A stretch of 64,000 nt of DNA. It comes from Escherichia phage KIT06. The translations under genes were made by a program, and so were the position numbers. The stretch lies in the sequence record OQ349392.1. One strand, given 5' to 3'. The notes under the pieces were generated by a model. The model ran no database searches. It saw only the letters and a program-made list of their open reading frames with translations, and had not been told where the DNA came from. Shown here one piece after another: positions 5,224-63,975 of this stretch. Each line of letters begins with the position of its first letter. Position 1 is the stretch's first letter.

Positions 5224-5253
5224 GTTTACTTTTCCTCTTGACTGTGGTATAAT
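5224..5253 (+). promoter_or_regulatory. T4 early promoter upstream of regB
   Basis: GTTTAC 5224-5229, 18-nt spacer, TGGTATAAT with TATAAT at 5248-5253; SD GAGGAG then ATG 5281. Confidence 0.6.
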
Positions 5254-9010: not shown

Positions 9011-9034
9011 AGTCTCCTTCGGGAGACTTTTTTC
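9011..9034 (+). terminator. rho-independent terminator (UUCG tetraloop hairpin)
   Basis: AGTCTCC TTCG GGAGACT followed by TTTTTT. Confidence 0.75.
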
Positions 9035-9043
9035 ATTTTACCG

Positions 9044-9074
9044 GTTTACTTTCCATTTGAGCTGTGATACTATA
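9044..9074 (+). promoter_or_regulatory. T4 early-type promoter with conserved leader
   Basis: GTTTAC 9044-9049; -10 region TGATACTATACAACTATC shares the leader motif repeated at 12950, 14869, 40921. Confidence 0.5.
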
Positions 9075-12880: not shown

Positions 12881-12906
12881 AGGGAGCCTTCGGGCTCCCT
12901 TTTTTG
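12881..12906 (+). terminator. rho-independent terminator (UUCG tetraloop)
   Basis: AGGGAGCC TTCG GGCTCCCT followed by TTTTTT. Confidence 0.8.
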
Positions 12907-12957: not shown

Positions 12958-12991
12958 ACAACTATCAACTGATGTGGATTTGGGGAATAAA

Positions 12992-13141
12992 ATGAAAACT
13001 ACGTTAATTGAAGTAAAAAAGTTGATTGACACAGAAGAGATTTCAGCTTATTTTGAAAATTTCTTAGAAGATGCAACTGAAGATAACGCGGTTTATCTCG
13101 CTCAGAAAATTATAGAAACATATTTGGAGCAGAATCAATGA
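12992..13141 (+). CDS. hypothetical small protein
   Basis: 49 aa from first ATG (ORF track 12827 is a non-ATG start spanning terminator and promoter). Confidence 0.4.
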   Translation: MKTTLIEVKKLIDTEEISAYFENFLEDATEDNAVYLAQKIIETYLEQNQ

Positions 13142-15431: not shown

Positions 15432-15486
15432 CCGCTTTATACCAAGGATGGTATAATGGTTCTAAGCCCTTTTAATTGAGATTATT

Positions 15487-15894
15487 ATGAAACAGTTGAT
15501 AATTAAAAGATTGAATTTATTGATATGTTGTTTATGTGTAGTAGTTGCATACGGTTATTATGCTATTAATGATTATATGCATTATAAAGATTATGATGTT
15601 ACTGTAGTTAATACCATTACAGGAACACAAGGAAAAGGGTCTAGTTTATCGTTTATTGCCGTATATGAACTTAAAGACGGTTATAGATTTAGTGAATATA
15701 TTTCCCCAGAGATGTATTCTTCAATAGAAAAAGGTGATAATATTACTGTAAGTTTACGTCCTTTCGACGTAAAACAGACACTGTTTGATAATATTGTTTG
15801 GTTCTTTGGGATGGTATTAGTTCAATCTGTGTGCGGTGCTTATGTAGTCTGTTCCATCTTATTCTGTATATTTAGTAAAATTGAAATTGAGTGA
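15487..15894 (+). CDS. hypothetical membrane protein
   Basis: 135 aa, N-terminal and C-terminal hydrophobic helices. Confidence 0.5.
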   Translation: MKQLIIKRLNLLICCLCVVVAYGYYAINDYMHYKDYDVTVVNTITGTQGKGSSLSFIAVYELKDGYRFSEYISPEMYSSIEKGDNITVSLRPFDVKQTLFDNIVWFFGMVLVQSVCGAYVVCSILFCIFSKIEIE

Positions 15895-15901
15895 GGAAAA
15901 T

Positions 15902-16792
15902 ATGTCAGTAGTAATTAATAATGTCAATGCAGTAATTAAATCTTTAGTTAATAAAAAAATGATGAATGAATGGACTGTATTTCGTCGTGGAGAGCCAGAT
16001 AAATTTTTTCATAGATTTAACCCAACTTTGGATTTGAATGTTATCGACAAAGATGTTCATGCAGAAATTTTAGATAAGTTTAAAGTTGATATTGGATTTG
16101 GATTAGAAAAACATTTACAGCGAACAACCGGGTCTGGAATGAGTTTATCTAATCGCATTATGAAAGCCCTTAATAAAATTGGAGCGTTGTCTCGTATTAA
16201 TGCGAGTGAAATTCTTCGTAATTATAATAAAGGATATGACCTTTATGGTCGACTAATGCCGAAATTATCATTCGATCAAATGATTGCGGATTTGTGGGAA
16301 AATCAACGACGATTATTAGCATTAGGCGCTCGATTAGCTAAAGGTCTAGATAAACAAATGATTTTTAAGACCAATAATACAGAAGACCTTAAATGCTTTA
16401 AATTTAGTATTCGTGGAGATGATTATTACATCAGAGCTCGCTCTACCGATTATATTAATATGGGACATCATCTCTGTTTAGCTTTTGAAGTTTTAAAAGA
16501 AGCTGGAACACTAGAATATTCATCTGGTGCAAAATGCCCTATTGGTTCAAGTTGTATTTTAATTTATCGCCCGGATGAATCTAGTTCAACTAAATTGCCT
16601 ACAAAACCTGTACCGGTTCGTAGTAACGAAAAACATTCTGAACAAATTGATTATTTTAATAAGCAGATTGAAGAGCTGAATATTTCTATTCAACAATATG
16701 ATGATGAAATTTTCAGACTATCTGGATTGAGTAGTAAAGCTAAATCTGAGCGTGAAAAGTTAATTAAAATTGTTGATTTACTTAAATCTTAA
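15902..16792 (+). CDS. hypothetical protein with C-terminal coiled coil (paralog family member 1)
   Basis: 296 aa from ATG 15902, SD GAGGAAAA; C-terminal heptad-like segment. Confidence 0.5.
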   Translation: MSVVINNVNAVIKSLVNKKMMNEWTVFRRGEPDKFFHRFNPTLDLNVIDKDVHAEILDKFKVDIGFGLEKHLQRTTGSGMSLSNRIMKALNKIGALSRINASEILRNYNKGYDLYGRLMPKLSFDQMIADLWENQRRLLALGARLAKGLDKQMIFKTNNTEDLKCFKFSIRGDDYYIRARSTDYINMGHHLCLAFEVLKEAGTLEYSSGAKCPIGSSCILIYRPDESSSTKLPTKPVPVRSNEKHSEQIDYFNKQIEELNISIQQYDDEIFRLSGLSSKAKSEREKLIKIVDLLKS

Positions 16793-16800
16793 GGAACACC

Positions 16801-17829
16801 ATGAAAACTCGTTCTCAAATTGAAGATATGGTTCGTACTGCCAGTGATACTCGTAATGTTATGACATTTTTGTGTGAAAATAATTTAGACCCTGATAAAG
16901 TTAATCGTGTTATTCATCACTTTAAGTATACGAATAGCAGTGAATGGGTGCGTAATTTTAGTAAAGCGGGTTATATTACACAAATGACTGCTCGTGAGCA
17001 ACTCACCGATTTCTGTAAAACTATTGATTATAAAAATCCTCTATTTGTTCAAGGCGTTGGTCAAAGTAAGGTCGATTTATCATCTGGATTTTTCAATCCA
17101 AATCATTATCGTATTGAATGGAGATTTATTGCTCTGTTCCGTAGACAATTAAAGCAAATTTTATCAACTGCGAGTCGATTAAAAGGTTCTGATATTAATT
17201 TAAAGAATCTGAAATTTGATGGTTATACTCTTCAGATGGAAGTAAGACCATTAAAAGAAAATAATAGAACTGCACGAATTAGCTTTAAACCTAATACAAA
17301 AAATTCTCTTTCAATTTGCGAATGCCTTAAATCGCAGTTGACAGAAGCATTTAAGTATATGGATGTTGTTGCCGCTGTTCAGTCTAAGATTTTACCTCGT
17401 TTTGAGCGATTTAAATTAGACACAACAACATATGAACTTGATATGATCGTTTCATTTAAATACGATTTTTTGAGAAAGGATGAAGTCACGCAAGAGAAAA
17501 AGCAAGAAGTGCAAGATAACTTAAATTTAAATTTATCCAATTACTCATCAAACGACCCTAAATTTTGGATGTATAGCTCAAGCAATATAGATGCATGTAA
17601 ACTTAATAAAGTGAGTTTTCTTCCTACTGAAAATTCAAATTTTAAACCTGTAGAAAAATGGCACGCTGACGCGATTGAGAAGTCTCTTGAGGCAGTAGAT
17701 GATGAACTCGTTAAAGCGACCAATGAAGTGCTAGAAGCTGAAAAGGTGTTAGAACAAGCTCAGTCAAGGGTTCAAAATCTGACAAAGCAACGTTCTAAAC
17801 TGAACAATGCACTAAATGCACTGAACTAG
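16801..17829 (+). CDS. hypothetical protein with C-terminal coiled coil (paralog family member 2)
   Basis: 342 aa; C-terminus EAEKVLEQAQSRVQNLTKQRSKLNNALNALN. Confidence 0.5.
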   Translation: MKTRSQIEDMVRTASDTRNVMTFLCENNLDPDKVNRVIHHFKYTNSSEWVRNFSKAGYITQMTAREQLTDFCKTIDYKNPLFVQGVGQSKVDLSSGFFNPNHYRIEWRFIALFRRQLKQILSTASRLKGSDINLKNLKFDGYTLQMEVRPLKENNRTARISFKPNTKNSLSICECLKSQLTEAFKYMDVVAAVQSKILPRFERFKLDTTTYELDMIVSFKYDFLRKDEVTQEKKQEVQDNLNLNLSNYSSNDPKFWMYSSSNIDACKLNKVSFLPTENSNFKPVEKWHADAIEKSLEAVDDELVKATNEVLEAEKVLEQAQSRVQNLTKQRSKLNNALNALN

Positions 17830-17858
17830 TTTACTTTGCCACAAGGATGTGGTATAAT
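17829..17858 (+). promoter_or_regulatory. T4 early promoter
   Basis: GTTTAC 17829-17834, TGGTATAAT with TATAAT 17853-17858; near-identical copy at 63946-63975. Confidence 0.65.
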
Positions 17859-17886
17859 GTTCTTACTTTCTACTGAGGAGATTAAT

Positions 17887-18888
17887 ATGACTCGTAACGA
17901 ATATATCAAATCATTCAATAGTGTTATTGATGATAAAGCTATACCGATGTTTGGCCAAAATAGCGTTCTTTCTATTATCAATCAATGGCTCAATAGTGTT
18001 GATGCAGGTATTGTTTCTTCTACTAAATTTATTCATGAAATTCGTAAAATTTCTAGTCGTGTAGATAAAGATGTTATCAAGAAAACCTTTAAAGAGTCTC
18101 GTCTTCTTTCATATTTGGTTAATCGGGATATTCTTGGTAATTTTGGGAAAGAAATTAAACGAACCAAAGATGTAGTAGGATATAATTGGTTCGGTGATGT
18201 TAATTCTTATCATCTTAATAATAAAGAAGACCCTGAGAATATTTTTACTCGTCGTTGGATTAGTAATTTCAGACTTTTCAAAGGACAGATTCTAAAATCA
18301 GCTTCTAAATTATGTTATGGCGATTATCGTCAAATTCATCCTTTGGCTTCTGATATGATTATCATAAAAGAATATGAACTTGATAAAAATAAAGTATCTA
18401 TTTTTGTGAATTATGGATTTTTTACACCAGAAACTAACCAAAAGAATATTAATAAATTTTTCTCAATTGCTAGCACTATAACTCGTCAATTAGAAACCGC
18501 ATTACTTTGTATGGAAACGGTAGAAAATATTCATACTTATCCTTTTAAGAATATGTGTGGTTGGGAAGGATATAAAATTATAATTAGCCTTCGTGAAGTG
18601 AAATGCGCTTATTCACCGACTGATAAAGAAATTTACCAACAAAAATGTGATGAAATTGTGAATACTCCTAAAGAAGAAACTACCCTTGAAGAACTAATGG
18701 ATAATCTTGACGATTCGCCTGAACCGATAGAAATTCGTCCAGAAGTTATTGCACTAGAAAAAGCTTATAAAGAAGTTCTAGAAATTTCTAATAAAGCGCA
18801 GAAAGAATATGAGAAGGCTAAAAGGATTTGGGAAGAATCTGTTAATCGTCTGGATCGTCTTGAACAAGCTTTACAGCTAATTAAGTAA
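17887..18888 (+). CDS. hypothetical protein with C-terminal coiled coil (paralog family member 3)
   Basis: 333 aa from ATG 17887, SD GAGGAG; ORF track 17836 start lies inside the promoter. Confidence 0.5.
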   Translation: MTRNEYIKSFNSVIDDKAIPMFGQNSVLSIINQWLNSVDAGIVSSTKFIHEIRKISSRVDKDVIKKTFKESRLLSYLVNRDILGNFGKEIKRTKDVVGYNWFGDVNSYHLNNKEDPENIFTRRWISNFRLFKGQILKSASKLCYGDYRQIHPLASDMIIIKEYELDKNKVSIFVNYGFFTPETNQKNINKFFSIASTITRQLETALLCMETVENIHTYPFKNMCGWEGYKIIISLREVKCAYSPTDKEIYQQKCDEIVNTPKEETTLEELMDNLDDSPEPIEIRPEVIALEKAYKEVLEISNKAQKEYEKAKRIWEESVNRLDRLEQALQLIK

Positions 18889-18940
18889 TTTAAAGCCAAG
18901 GATGGCTCGGAGTATAAATCATTAACCAAATGAGAAGAAC

Positions 18941-19870
18941 ATGAAAACTCGTAAACATTATATTGATTATTTTGATAGTCTTATTACTAAACACCGTAAT
19001 TATCAGATCGGACACAGAGCAGTAATCAATAATATTCTTCGTGATTTCCTTCAATATGTTGGCCAGGAAAATCATATCTGTAAAGATACACAGAACGCTT
19101 ATTCTCATTCGTTGGGCAATTTGCTTCAATGGTTTAAACGTTCTCGTATGTTATCTTCTACTGTAGCTCGCGATAACATTAAAAACTTTATGAAGCCGAG
19201 TTTTATTAAATCTGCGACATCTATAACTGATTTGGTTGAATTTACTATTGTTAACGATGTTAAAAAGACCCATTTGGCTGATTGGCTATCTACCATTCCT
19301 GAAACTAAATTTGCTGATAAATTTGCCTGTCAATTTAATGACCAAGTGAATATGCTTTTTAAGCATGCTCGTAAACTATTTACCGCAGGCGATGACCGTA
19401 CAAATACAGTTCATGTTAAGGACTGGGTTATTGCTGATGAAGTAACACACAAGCCAGGTGGTTCATCAGTATTAATTAATATCCAGGTTCCTTATTATTA
19501 CTCACGTAATCTCGGCACCATGACAGCTAGAGAAATTAATAAGCACAACAAAACTATTCGTTCGTTGTCTTATAAACTCCGCATGATGCTAAAAATTATG
19601 GACGTAGTGGAAATGTATGACGAAACCGAAGATAACGGTTCAATGTTATACAGTTCACGCATTCTAATTAAACTGAAGAACCCTAATACATATAAGACAG
19701 TTGTAAAAGAGCCTAAAGTAGAAAAGATTGATAACTTGAGCGAAGAACGTGAATATCTCAATGCTCGCTTAATTGAAGTTGAATCCCAGATTGCCGAACA
19801 CACCAAATTGTTAAAAGCTCTTAATGCAAAAGCAAATGGTTTACGCAATGCTATTGAGGTATTGAAATGA
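18941..19870 (+). CDS. hypothetical protein with C-terminal coiled coil (paralog family member 4)
   Basis: 309 aa; C-terminus [37 protein letters not shown]. Confidence 0.5.
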   Translation: MKTRKHYIDYFDSLITKHRNYQIGHRAVINNILRDFLQYVGQENHICKDTQNAYSHSLGNLLQWFKRSRMLSSTVARDNIKNFMKPSFIKSATSITDLVEFTIVNDVKKTHLADWLSTIPETKFADKFACQFNDQVNMLFKHARKLFTAGDDRTNTVHVKDWVIADEVTHKPGGSSVLINIQVPYYYSRNLGTMTAREINKHNKTIRSLSYKLRMMLKIMDVVEMYDETEDNGSMLYSSRILIKLKNPNTYKTVVKEPKVEKIDNLSEEREYLNARLIEVESQIAEHTKLLKALNAKANGLRNAIEVLK

Positions 19871-40929: not shown

Positions 40930-40963
40930 ACAACTATCAACTGATGCGGATTTGGAGAATGAA

Positions 40964-41344
40964 ATGAAAATCGCTATTTTGGTTATTGCATTGGGTCTTA
41001 CTGGTTGTGTAGCTCAAGGACCAGTAGTAAATCAGTCTGATGTAGGAAAAATTGTAAACTGTTCAAGCAAATTTTATAATCCTAATGTTAAGTGTTATAA
41101 AGAAGCTCCAAAACAGACAGTAGAACAAATGCAGGCGAATTTTGACGAAGCTATTCGTCCAGATGAATCTGCCCAAGCATATCGTAATTCAGATGTAATT
41201 ACACGCGAAGAAAAAATTGAAAGCTACTGCGCTGAACTTTGGGCAAATTGGGCTAATAATTACCAATGGCGTACTGGTAAAAATGCTCCGATGGAGTATG
41301 TAGTAAATTCTTATAATTCATGTGTAAAAAATTTAACTAAGTGA
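40964..41344 (+). CDS. lipoprotein (imm.1 position)
   Basis: 126 aa from ATG 40964; signal peptide with lipobox LTGC. Confidence 0.55.
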   Translation: MKIAILVIALGLTGCVAQGPVVNQSDVGKIVNCSSKFYNPNVKCYKEAPKQTVEQMQANFDEAIRPDESAQAYRNSDVITREEKIESYCAELWANWANNYQWRTGKNAPMEYVVNSYNSCVKNLTK

Positions 41345-51464: not shown

Positions 51465-51490
51465 AAGGAATCCTTCGGGGTTCCTTTTTC
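51465..51490 (+). terminator. rho-independent terminator (UUCG tetraloop)
   Basis: AAGGAATCC TTCG GGGTTCCTT followed by TTTTC. Confidence 0.8.
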
Positions 51491-52938: not shown

Positions 52939-53405
52939 TTGAAGTAGCAAAACATTATTCAATAGAATTTATGTCTAAAGAAGGTAAATCGGTAAATACA
53001 CTTGATAAAGAGTGCTCATTAATTATTCCTTTAGCAGAAAATCCGGATATTTTAATTAAAGATATAAAAGAAAGAAAATATCCAGAAAATGTTATTCTAA
53101 TTATAAAGCATACTGAAGATATTTTGCAGAATACTGATTCACCGTTTTCTTCTTCCGAAGCTTTAACTATTAAAGGCTATAAAAGAGCCCATGAATATGG
53201 TCTTTTTGACCTGTTTGAAGACGATAAAGTTAAATTAGCGAGTCAACCTTCTAAAAGTAAAACATTCATTATTGAAGATATTAAAGATATAAATGCATTT
53301 GTTAAGATGGTCTGGGCTCATTTTGATGTTGGACTACGCTGGAGAATGTCCGAAGAAGAAAGAAAAATTATTGAAGCTAATCGTTATTTTGGTTTTTATC
53401 GCTAG
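52935..53405 (+). CDS. hypothetical protein
   Basis: 156-aa ORF. Confidence 0.5.
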
Positions 53406-62083: not shown

Positions 62084-62128
62084 TGATTACCGGAGTATAA
62101 TATTCCCGAAACCAAACGAGGATAAGTG

Positions 62129-63946
62129 ATGATTAAGAATGAAATTAAAATTCTGAGCGATATTGAACATATCAAAAAGCGTAGCGGCATGTATATTGGC
62201 TCTTCTGCTAATGAAATGCATGAGCGCTTTCTGTTTGGTAAATGGGAAAGTGTTCAGTATGTACCTGGTCTTGTTAAGCTTATTGATGAAATTATCGATA
62301 ACTCAGTAGATGAAGGTATTCGTACTAAGTTTAAATTCGCAAATAAAATTAATGTTACTATCAAAAACAATCAAGTAACAGTTGAAGATAACGGTCGTGG
62401 TATTCCACAAGCGATGGTTAAAACACCTACTGGTGAAGAAATTCCTGGTCCTGTTGCTGCCTGGACTATTCCAAAAGCAGGTGGTAACTTTGGTGATGAT
62501 AAAGAACGCGTCACTGGCGGTATGAACGGTGTTGGTTCTAGTTTAACTAACATTTTTTCTGTGATGTTTGTCGGTGAAACTGGCGATGGTCAAAATAATA
62601 TTGTAGTTCGTTGTTCAAATGGCATGGAAAATAAATCATGGGAAACTATTCCTGGAAAATGGAAAGGAACACGTGTTACTTTCATTCCTGATTTTATGTC
62701 ATTTGAAACTAATGAGCTATCTCAAGTTTATCTTGACATTACACTAGATCGTCTCCAGACACTTGCAGTAGTTTATCCTGATATTCAATTTACCTTTAAT
62801 GGTAAAAAGGTTCAGGGTAATTTTAAGAAATATGCACGCCAATATGATGAACATGCTATCGTTCAAGAACAAGAAAATTGTTCTATTGCGGTTGGTCGTT
62901 CACCTGATGGTTTTCGTCAATTAACATACGTCAATAACATTCATACTAAGAATGGTGGCCATCATATTGACTGTGTTATGGATGATATTTGTGAAGACCT
63001 TATTCCACAAATCAAACGTAAGTTCAAAATTGATGTAACTAAAGCACGCGTTAAAGAATGTTTGACTATCGTTATGTTTGTTCGTGATATGAAAAACATG
63101 CGATTTGATTCTCAGACTAAAGAGCGTTTGACTTCTCCATTTGGTGAAATTCGTAGTCATATTCAGCTTGATGCTAAAAAGATTTCACGTGCTATTTTAA
63201 ATAATGAAGCAATTTTAATGCCAATTATTGAAGCTGCCTTGGCTCGTAAATTGGCGGCAGAAAAAGCAGCAGAAACTAAAGCAGCTAAAAAGGCTTCTAA
63301 AGCTAAGGTTCATAAACATATTAAAGCGAATCTTTGCGGTAAAGATGCTGACACTACTCTTTTCTTGACTGAGGGTGATTCTGCTATTGGATATCTTATT
63401 GATGTTCGTGATAAAGAACTTCATGGTGGTTATCCATTGCGTGGTAAAGTTCTTAACAGTTGGGGTATGTCATATGCTGATATGCTTAAAAACAAAGAAC
63501 TGTTTGATATTTGCGCAATCACTGGATTAGTTCTTGGTGAAAAAGCCGAAAACTTGAATTATCATAATATTGCTATTATGACCGATGCTGACCATGATGG
63601 TCTAGGAAGCATTTATCCTTCTTTGCTCGGATTTTTTAGTAATTGGCCAGAACTGTTTGAACAAGGAAGAATTCGCTTTGTTAAAACTCCTGTAATCATC
63701 GCTCAGGTCGGTAAAAAACAAGAATGGTTTTATACAGTCGCTGAATATGAGAGTGCTAAAGATGCTCTACCTAAACATAGCATCCGTTATATTAAGGGAC
63801 TTGGCTCTTTGGAAAAATCTGAATATCGTGAGATGATTCAAAATCCAGTATATGATGTTGTTAAACTTCCTGAGAACTGGAAAGAGCTTTTTGAAATGCT
63901 CATGGGAGATAATGCTGACCTTCGCAAAGAATGGATGAGCCAGTAG
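62129..63946 (+). CDS. 39: DNA topoisomerase II large (ATPase) subunit gp39, unsplit form
   Basis: 605 aa from ATG 62129; GyrB-like ATPase motifs (EHIKKRSGMYIGS, DNGRGIP) and TOPRIM region in one ORF; no gene-60 split. Confidence 0.93.
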   Translation: MIKNEIKILSDIEHIKKRSGMYIGSSANEMHERFLFGKWESVQYVPGLVKLIDEIIDNSVDEGIRTKFKFANKINVTIKNNQVTVEDNGRGIPQAMVKTPTGEEIPGPVAAWTIPKAGGNFGDDKERVTGGMNGVGSSLTNIFSVMFVGETGDGQNNIVVRCSNGMENKSWETIPGKWKGTRVTFIPDFMSFETNELSQVYLDITLDRLQTLAVVYPDIQFTFNGKKVQGNFKKYARQYDEHAIVQEQENCSIAVGRSPDGFRQLTYVNNIHTKNGGHHIDCVMDDICEDLIPQIKRKFKIDVTKARVKECLTIVMFVRDMKNMRFDSQTKERLTSPFGEIRSHIQLDAKKISRAILNNEAILMPIIEAALARKLAAEKAAETKAAKKASKAKVHKHIKANLCGKDADTTLFLTEGDSAIGYLIDVRDKELHGGYPLRGKVLNSWGMSYADMLKNKELFDICAITGLVLGEKAENLNYHNIAIMTDADHDGLGSIYPSLLGFFSNWPELFEQGRIRFVKTPVIIAQVGKKQEWFYTVAEYESAKDALPKHSIRYIKGLGSLEKSEYREMIQNPVYDVVKLPENWKELFEMLMGDNADLRKEWMSQ

Positions 63947-63975
63947 TTTACTTTACCACAAGGATGTGGTAAAAT
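63946..63975 (+). promoter_or_regulatory. T4 early promoter (near-duplicate of 17829-17858)
   Basis: GTTTAC 63946-63951, ACAAGGATGTGGTAAAAT; differs from the 17829 promoter at two positions. Confidence 0.6.

Follow-up and report, generated by a model that had tools for sequence, protein, structure and literature searches.

Two near-identical 30-nucleotide sequences in the window (the whole 64,000-nucleotide stretch of DNA analyzed here) can be explained, with a probability of roughly 0.8, as two copies of a single T4-type cassette of the PeSL kind, in which a promoter and a hairpin are combined and which would be active both on DNA and on read-through RNA. An initial annotation had listed the pair as a duplicated early promoter whose copies lie 46 kb apart before unrelated genes. 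That observation is correct and was correctly interpreted, and the element is of a known kind; two points absent from the annotation are a hairpin nested in the promoter spacer and the spread of the cassette across genera. The sites and their immediate neighbors are as follows.

17827-17829, + strand: TAG ending the nrdC.5 homologue, the G doubling as the first -35 base of copy 1
17829-17858, + strand: copy 1, predicted early promoter of the nrdC.4 homologue, GTTTACTTTGCCACAAGGATGTGGTATAAT
17829-17834, + strand: -35 of copy 1, GTTTAC
17837-17854, + strand: hairpin of copy 1, TGCCACA-AGGA-TGTGGTA; the loop is at 17844-17847 and one of the 7 pairs is G-U
17848-17852, + strand: extended -10 of copy 1, TGTGG
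17853-17858, + strand: -10 of copy 1, TATAAT
17859-17889, + strand: leader of copy 1, with Shine-Dalgarno GAGGAG at 17875-17880 and the nrdC.4 ATG at 17887-17889
63944-63946, + strand: TAG ending the fused gene (39+60) for the topoisomerase II large subunit; overlaps the -35 of copy 2
63946-63975, + strand: copy 2, predicted early promoter 5' of rIIA.1, GTTTACTTTACCACAAGGATGTGGTAAAAT
63946-63951, + strand: -35 of copy 2, GTTTAC
63952-63973, + strand: hairpin of copy 2, TTTACCACA-AGGA-TGTGGTAAA, a perfect 9-bp palindrome
63965-63969, + strand: TGTGG of copy 2
63970-63975, + strand: -10 of copy 2, TAAAAT

Both 30-mers were found on the + strand at 17829 and 63946 with the two differences originally reported, and these mismatches, which leave 28 of 30 positions identical, fall at position 10 (G/A) and position 27 (T/A). 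A search of the 64 kb allowing up to 3 mismatches returned exactly these two sites, with 0 expected from shuffled sequences. Hundreds of Tequatrovirus (T4-like) genomes match the surrounding region at 96-98% identity, and the + strand of the window corresponds to the minus strand of T4, i.e. the early-gene strand. Placed against the annotated T4 record, copy 1 falls between nrdC.5 and nrdC.4 and copy 2 between the topoisomerase II large-subunit gene and rIIA.1, in agreement with the claim that different genes lie downstream. The ATG downstream of copy 2 is located just beyond the end of the window and is visible in T4. Both copies are present in T4, where a 30-mer identical to copy 1 occurs at about 50973 and the pair matches at 29 of 30 positions; the T4 copies differ at a single position because copy 2 there has TATAAT.

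The in-frame TAG codons terminate a frame of 347 codons (nrdC.5) at copy 1 and one of 606 codons (39+60) at copy 2, and the leading G of each 30-mer is the last base of that stop codon, as had been noticed. Such contact is ordinary in a compact genome and is not peculiar to the pair: among the 21 early promoters recognized in the window, 4 overlap a TAG in the same manner and 12 lie no more than 6 nt from an upstream stop codon. In the window, the large subunit of topoisomerase II is encoded by an unsplit gene (39+60); the T4 counterpart is gene 60. Given that the frame is open for 606 codons, at about 62126-63946, it would represent a fused 39+60 without the mobA/60.1 insertion and gene 60 bypass arrangement of T4.

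Early promoters were scored with the pattern GTTTAC-N18-TANNNT, which occurs 21 times in the window, always on the + strand, against 0.8 occurrences expected for both strands. The profile of these 21 promoters is strong at GTTTAC, at TGTGG before the -10 and at TAnnnT. Both 30-mers conform to it, with GTTTAC, an 18-nt gap, TGTGG and TANNNT on the early strand and with a Shine-Dalgarno sequence and start codon downstream, which bears out their description as a duplicated early promoter. Each copy begins with GTTTACT, in agreement with GTTTAC(W), and in each TGTGG abuts the -10; at copy 1 the scan for an extended -10 marks the TG before the second hexamer. No A/T-rich UP element was found between -40 and -60 at either copy, the 30 nt upstream being coding sequence of 63% and 53% A+T, and neither copy has the aaaGTT tract that is present before many other window promoters. 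A transcription start near 17865 is predicted for copy 1. In GenBank records of Yersinia fPS phages both sites are annotated as predicted early promoters, and a search of one literature collection for experimental mapping of the two promoters returned nothing specific to them. Both sites presumably also stand in the T4 early-promoter lists (Wilkens and Rueger 1994; Miller et al. 2003).

The resemblance of the two copies exceeds that expected from the shared consensus. When the columns of the promoter alignment were permuted with the consensus kept, a match of 28/30 was reached in 6 of 20000 permutations; the second-best pair among the 21 window promoters matches at 25/30. The similarity is not confined to the -35 and -10 positions, since the non-consensus spacer also matches at 13 of 14 positions, a value reached in 21 of 20000 column permutations. 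It ends abruptly at the borders of the 30-mers: 30-nt blocks on each side match at only 6-14 of 30 positions (T4 sequence was used past the window end). Given that non-consensus spacer bases are shared as well, common descent is the best reading of the two copies. Convergence would instead have independent promoters arriving at the same sigma-70 optimum (for example, that of the Alt-modified polymerase), the copies then having no shared ancestry and the hairpin no role. Such a view could draw on the "additional regions of consensus" beyond -35 and -10 that are recorded for T4 early promoters (PMC2988021). However, the information at spacer positions 10-19 does not exceed 0.54 bit in the set of 21 window promoters, which leaves no optimum visible there, and the promoters at 5224 and 51500, which have perfect -35, TGTGG and TATAAT elements, have unrelated spacers.

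Located between -35 and -10, the spacer forms an inverted repeat, (G/A)CCACA-AGGA-TGTGGT, the right arm of which is the extended -10. Given that the left half of the spacer, (G/A)CCACA, is complementary to the fixed TGTGG(T), the sense strand would fold into a stem of 7-9 bp with an AGGA loop. Single-strand folding gave -8.2 kcal/mol (z = -2.2) for copy 1 and -10.2 kcal/mol (z = -3.7) for copy 2; the remaining 19 window promoters gave -5.1 kcal/mol or weaker. Upstream of many other window promoters lie a separate UUCG hairpin, followed by a T-run, and an A-rich tract; both are missing from the two copies, since these begin right at the stop codon. As a terminator, the copy 1 hairpin is borderline, with 3 G-C pairs and the tail TAATGTTCTT, and was flagged by a lenient pattern scan only. 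The tail at copy 2, AATTAATTGG, has no U-run, so that this copy lacks the combination of a G+C-rich stem with a U-run. A search of the whole window at Rfam gathering thresholds gave no family match.

Two observations concern single bases within the copies. Position 27 of copy 2 (63972) gives TAAAAT here, compared with TATAAT in T4 and in the five T4-type IMG/VR contigs that were read. A 141-nt query was matched at 100% by 0 of 498 records, the best hits having one mismatch, taken to be position 27. The T-to-A change at 63972 completes the perfect 9-bp palindrome and may be a private mutation or a sequencing error. At copy 1, the stretch 17844-17858 contains AAGGA followed after 8 nt by an ATG (17856-17858) that shares its reading frame with nrdC.4 (start at 17887), and read-through mRNA could thus give an nrdC.4 product with 10 additional residues (MFLLSTEEIN-MTRNEY...). 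Such N-terminal extension of nrdC.4 was considered as the reason for the shared sequence and dropped, since copy 2 has no equivalent.

The hairpin is not restricted to the two copies. The window has four CAAGGATG sites, every one of them on the + strand, at the apex of a perfect hairpin and 0-10 nt past a stop codon. Two related hairpins are present in addition to those of the pair.

15437-15457, + strand: hairpin TTATACCA-AGGA-TGGTATAA; overlaps the -10 of PnrdC.7 (TATAAT, 15452-15457) and lies 5 nt past the nrdC.8 stop codon
18894-18907, + strand: hairpin AGCCA-AGGA-TGGCT; in the nrdC.4/nrdC.3 spacer, 5 nt past the nrdC.4 stop codon

Downstream of the latter come TATAAAT (18913-18919) and, at 18941, the start of nrdC.3. 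The former, 2.4 kb from copy 1, belongs to PnrdC.7, a T4 middle promoter with its start site at 53325 (PMC2988021, table 1). Like the two copies, PnrdC.7 has a CCA-AGGA-TGG core that overlaps an extended -10, TGGTATAAT, a few bases past the upstream stop codon. It differs from them in its stem (TTATACCA/TGGTATAA) and in having a MotA-box-like GCTTTA in place of GTTTAC, and because of that replacement it is assigned to a different promoter class.

In IMG/VR, the 16-mer CCACAAGGATGTGGTA was found in promoter spacers behind GTTTAC, TTGTAC or CTTGACA, preceding at least 11 different genes in contigs that have the sizes of T4-, JS98-, EcS1- and PKO111-type phages. Several of the CCACAAGGATGTGGTA sites lie directly past the stop codon of DNA polymerase (...MFDF*), the Jiaodavirus contig 2974754850 has three copies, and one occurrence is a bare hairpin beside a Shine-Dalgarno sequence with no possible -10. 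The promoter and leader of copy 1 share 84% identity over 62 nt with the promoter cassette of cef in Klebsiella phage PKO111. In Klebsiella Jiaodaviruses, promoter, leader and Shine-Dalgarno sequence all recur before cef, the bases from GTTTAC through GGTA being identical, and no further DNA similarity was detected around this cassette. In VR26 (Gaprivervirus), the orthologous nrdC.5/nrdC.4 site, located through its flanking genes and hence independently of the motif, reads GTTTAC-T-TCCAAGGATGGA-GGGAA-TATAAT; here, the CCA-AGGA-TGG core is kept but shifted by 3 nt, and the extended -10 is no longer used. The initial annotation had suggested looking for the element in other T-even genomes, and hairpin promoters of this type are indeed present in several genera of the Tevenvirinae. 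A side observation from the same database concerns the 141,935-bp contig 3300021399_000111, too unlike the T4-like genera in size to belong with them, in which CCACAAGGATGTGGTA is followed by TTTTATTTT and then by a Shine-Dalgarno sequence; this hairpin may represent terminator use in another phage group.

These occurrences bear on convergence. In its favor, the hairpin has as its right arm nothing other than the extended -10. Against this, the same core hairpin is found in a middle promoter, in a spacer without an early promoter and, in one case, by a Shine-Dalgarno sequence without any -10. Because the spacer lacks a consensus and the hairpin is found outside early promoters, convergence is considered very unlikely, and descent of both copies from one promoter-hairpin cassette is preferred.

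An inverted repeat at this position could alternatively be an operator, the palindrome TTTACCACA-AGGA-TGTGGTAAA being bound by a dimeric phage or host protein that switches some early promoters off or on. The window's copy 2 forms a palindrome that is perfect at 9+4+9, the interval between -35 and -10 is a classic repressor position, the palindrome is conserved across genera and the mechanism by which T4 early promoters are shut off is not settled (PMC2988021). However, pairing is kept while the stems change (TACCA/TGGTA, AGCCA/TGGCT, TCCA/TGGA), which is the signature of a folded strand and not of a half-site, and the G-T in place of A-T in copy 1 and three other members breaks a DNA palindrome but not an RNA stem. 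The perfect palindrome, moreover, needs the T-to-A change at position 27, which is seemingly private, and the VR26 hairpin is shifted by 3 nt relative to both -35 and -10. Given the covarying stems, the palindrome-breaking G-T pairs and the private change needed for perfection, an operator is regarded as very improbable, and the sequence is better read as a cassette whose sense strand folds. Readings of the palindrome as a CRP, TyrR or MotA-box site were rejected on inspection against the consensus sequences of those sites, the half-site orientation and spacing being a misfit.

Covariation was assessed across 11 members of the hairpin family. Paired cells amounted to 92%, compared with 76.5% in shuffles, and 9 cells showed double-sided changes, a number reached in 0 of 500 shuffles; sense-strand G-U pairs occur in 4 of the 11 members. 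Given that only three stem variants are independent, the other members having been selected by the motif itself, the covariation is supportive of folding and not conclusive. A hairpin also follows the stop codon of the topoisomerase II large subunit in Mosig-, Dhaka-, Winkler-, Karam-, Jiaoda- and Krischvirus, with unrelated sequences, which suggests that the stem-loop at this position is conserved and not its letters. Among most phages, position 10 is G at copy 1, and it is A at copy 2. Ongoing gene conversion between the copies was considered, and no homogenization was seen; the exception is phiC600P9, in which copy 1 has A.

The stems of the 11 members vary, whereas the AGGA loop and its closing C-A/T-G pairs are invariant in all 11, and the conservation of the loop is explained by neither promoter function nor pairing. 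One account of the shared sequence would be a specific RNA signal instead of a generic stem-loop: on early mRNA that reads through, the loop AGGA/U would be a defined site of processing or ribosome contact, for example for RegB cleavage (GGAG/U) or as a Shine-Dalgarno-like standby site. The early intergenic regions are where RegB cleaves GGAG/U, and the enzyme by itself can cleave a small RNA whose GGA is free of pairing and whose fourth base is constrained (PMC3014915). An unpaired GGA with a constrained fourth base is the geometry present in the hairpin, and the loop and the downstream ATG are separated by 37-40 nt in each of the four members from the window or T4. However, the 3' context misfits the strong RegB consensus GGAGRAYARAA (PMC3014915), the orthologous post-topoisomerase hairpins of other genera have unrelated loops, there is no match to an Rfam family, and conservation of the loop is equally explained by plain descent of one cassette. 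As an explanation of the pair, an RNA signal is therefore quite unlikely, and common descent of the promoter-hairpin cassette is the simplest reading of the invariant loop. A wider proposal, which sets the hairpin with the AGGA loop (core C-A-AGGA-T-G) apart from generic PeSL stem-loops as an RNA signal of the sense strand, for example a RegB cleavage site at GGA/U or a standby site 37-40 nt ahead of the next start codon, would have it kept across at least 5 Tevenvirinae genera in early, middle and promoter-less intergenic contexts; this proposal is doubtful and, if true, would add a minor element to T4 post-transcriptional control.

The arrangement is closely similar to that of the PeSL cassette (Arbiol et al. 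2010, PMC2839356), which runs from an upstream stop codon and an AT-rich tract through a sigma-70-type early promoter and stem-loop to a Shine-Dalgarno sequence and the next start codon. The PeSL stem-loop takes one of five places, including between the -35 and -10, overlapping a box and outside, and G-T pairs are allowed; representative PeSLs had promoter and terminator activity, and recombination between copies was shown (PMC2839356). Comeau et al. (2014, PMC4122927) extended PeSLs to the pair T4/PST, for which the consensus is TTTACW-N17-TAYWAT. Here, the order stop codon, early promoter, stem-loop, Shine-Dalgarno and start is the same, copy 1 being complete within 17827-17889, and a stable stem-loop of 7 and 9 pairs, with a G-T pair in copy 1, lies between -35 and -10. 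Many near-identical copies occur per genome, copy 1 is located in the nrdC.x region, as PeSLs favor hyperplastic regions, and one cassette precedes unrelated genes in related phages. The T4/PST consensus fits copy 1 and copy 2 of T4: TTTACW is separated from the -10 by 17 bp, TATAAT fits TAYWAT and the TAAAAT of copy 2 in the window departs from it at hexamer position 3 (Y), where the T4 sequence fits.

Neither copy has, upstream of the -35, the AT-rich tract that is usual in PeSLs and in strong T4 early promoters. The stem CCACA/TGTGG and AGGA loop also differ from the G-run/C-run stems of RB49 and phi1 and from the AGNA/TCNT that is frequent in PST, and the PeSL stem-loops of PST and T4 were drawn by their authors upstream of the promoter, whereas those described here lie inside the spacer. 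Judged by sequence, the two copies show the PeSL layout, stem-loop and repetition but not the AT-rich upstream tract. The match to PeSLs and the annotation of the fPS sites as predicted early promoters are the reasons for filing the copies as elements of a known kind. Given that they are 46 kb apart across essential genes, the two copies cannot be a mini-circle excision pair. A separate observation was made in RB49, where the sequence after gene 39 (about 505-570 of the piece read) contains TTGACA-N17-TATAAT; its -10 is enclosed by a stem, AAGGGAGA...TCTCCCTT, after which comes TTTTCTTTT. By its sequence, this element has the layout of a textbook PeSL with the stem-loop overlapping the -10.

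The copies also resemble T4 early promoters (Hinton 2010, PMC2988021) in their -35/TGn/-10 layout, in the GTTTAC variant, in their location on the early strand and in their predicted immediate-early timing; they differ from the catalogued examples in having no UP-like A-rich tract and in the presence of an internal hairpin. A further point of comparison is provided by the hairpins at other window promoters. UUCG-tetraloop intercistronic hairpins and terminators of T4 were reportedly described by Tuerk et al. in 1988. Like these, the hairpin described here is a stem-loop positioned right after a cistron in an early polycistronic RNA; the UUCG hairpins differ in their GC-rich stem, UUCG loop and U-run and in their location outside the promoter.

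Based on these comparisons, we infer that both copies act as promoters and that their hairpin has a role in RNA. Host sigma-70 RNA polymerase would read GTTTAC, the TGTGG extended -10 and TATAAT or TAAAAT, and immediate-early transcripts would begin about 7 nt past the -10, covering nrdC.4 from copy 1 and rIIA.1, with probably rIIA, from copy 2. In RNA reading through from upstream promoters, the hairpin would most likely be an attenuator or a 3'-end-protecting stem-loop, a role that would correspond to that of the separate upstream UUCG-loop hairpin at other T4 early promoters. The absence of any intergenic gap may be why it lies inside the promoter here. All 30 positions would have been kept between unrelated flanks because promoter elements and pairing constrain them jointly.

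A repeated promoter-hairpin module has thus already been described in T4-type phages, and the pair is correct but ordinary, its importance being small beyond housekeeping. The comparison illustrates that repeated promoter-plus-hairpin cassettes are recognizable from raw T4-like sequence. It also identifies a subfamily that builds its stem-loop from the extended -10, such that one 30-base stretch would serve both as DNA promoter and as folded strand; a 30-mer of this type could stay identical amid differing surroundings because promoter and fold constrain the same bases.

Near-identical early promoters are a general property of T4, in which five pairs rather than one are found. The pattern GTTTAC-N18-TANNNT occurs at 38 sites in T4, all on one strand, and pairs of these matching at 28/30 or better number five, two of them at 30/30, against 0.0003 expected by permutation. 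The four further T4 pairs (146875/55384, 136336/123093, 166807/27080 and 57990/20612) match at 28-30/30. In some, the flanks are also similar, with 27/30 upstream for 146875/55384 and 24/30 downstream for 136336/123093. The T4 promoter after denB has a related spacer, ACCAC-AAGGACC-GTGGT. Elsewhere in the window, near-identical early-promoter leaders are present at 12958-12994 and 40930-40966, acaactatcaactgatg(t/c)ggatttgg(g/a)gaat(a/g)aaatg, and by their sequence these appear to be another repeated promoter-leader cassette. UUCG hairpins with T-runs at 9012-9033, 12883-12905 and 51466-51490 lie 10-30 nt 5' of the early promoters at 9044, 12928 and 51500, sites at which the letters indicate a terminator-then-promoter layout.

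Finally, the genes around copy 1 were found to vary among relatives. Alignment of the Tequatroviruses ECO07P1 and phiC600P9 to window positions 17887-17990 and 18941 onward revealed the copy 1 cassette before an nrdC.3-like gene, nrdC.4 having been lost. PeSLs are expected where related phages have exchanged, inserted or deleted genes, and the cassette does precede at least 11 different genes across genera; however, the join of this one deletion beside copy 1 lies at ACTCGTAA in the paralogous coding starts (ATG-ACTCGTAA-ACATTAT...), outside the cassette. The four consecutive nrdC.6,.5,.4 and.3 homologues at 15881-19870 encode proteins of about 300-350 aa that are paralogue-like, with coiled-coil-like C-termini, and the "thioredoxin" label that these homologues carry in many GenBank records looks like spill-over from nrdC.
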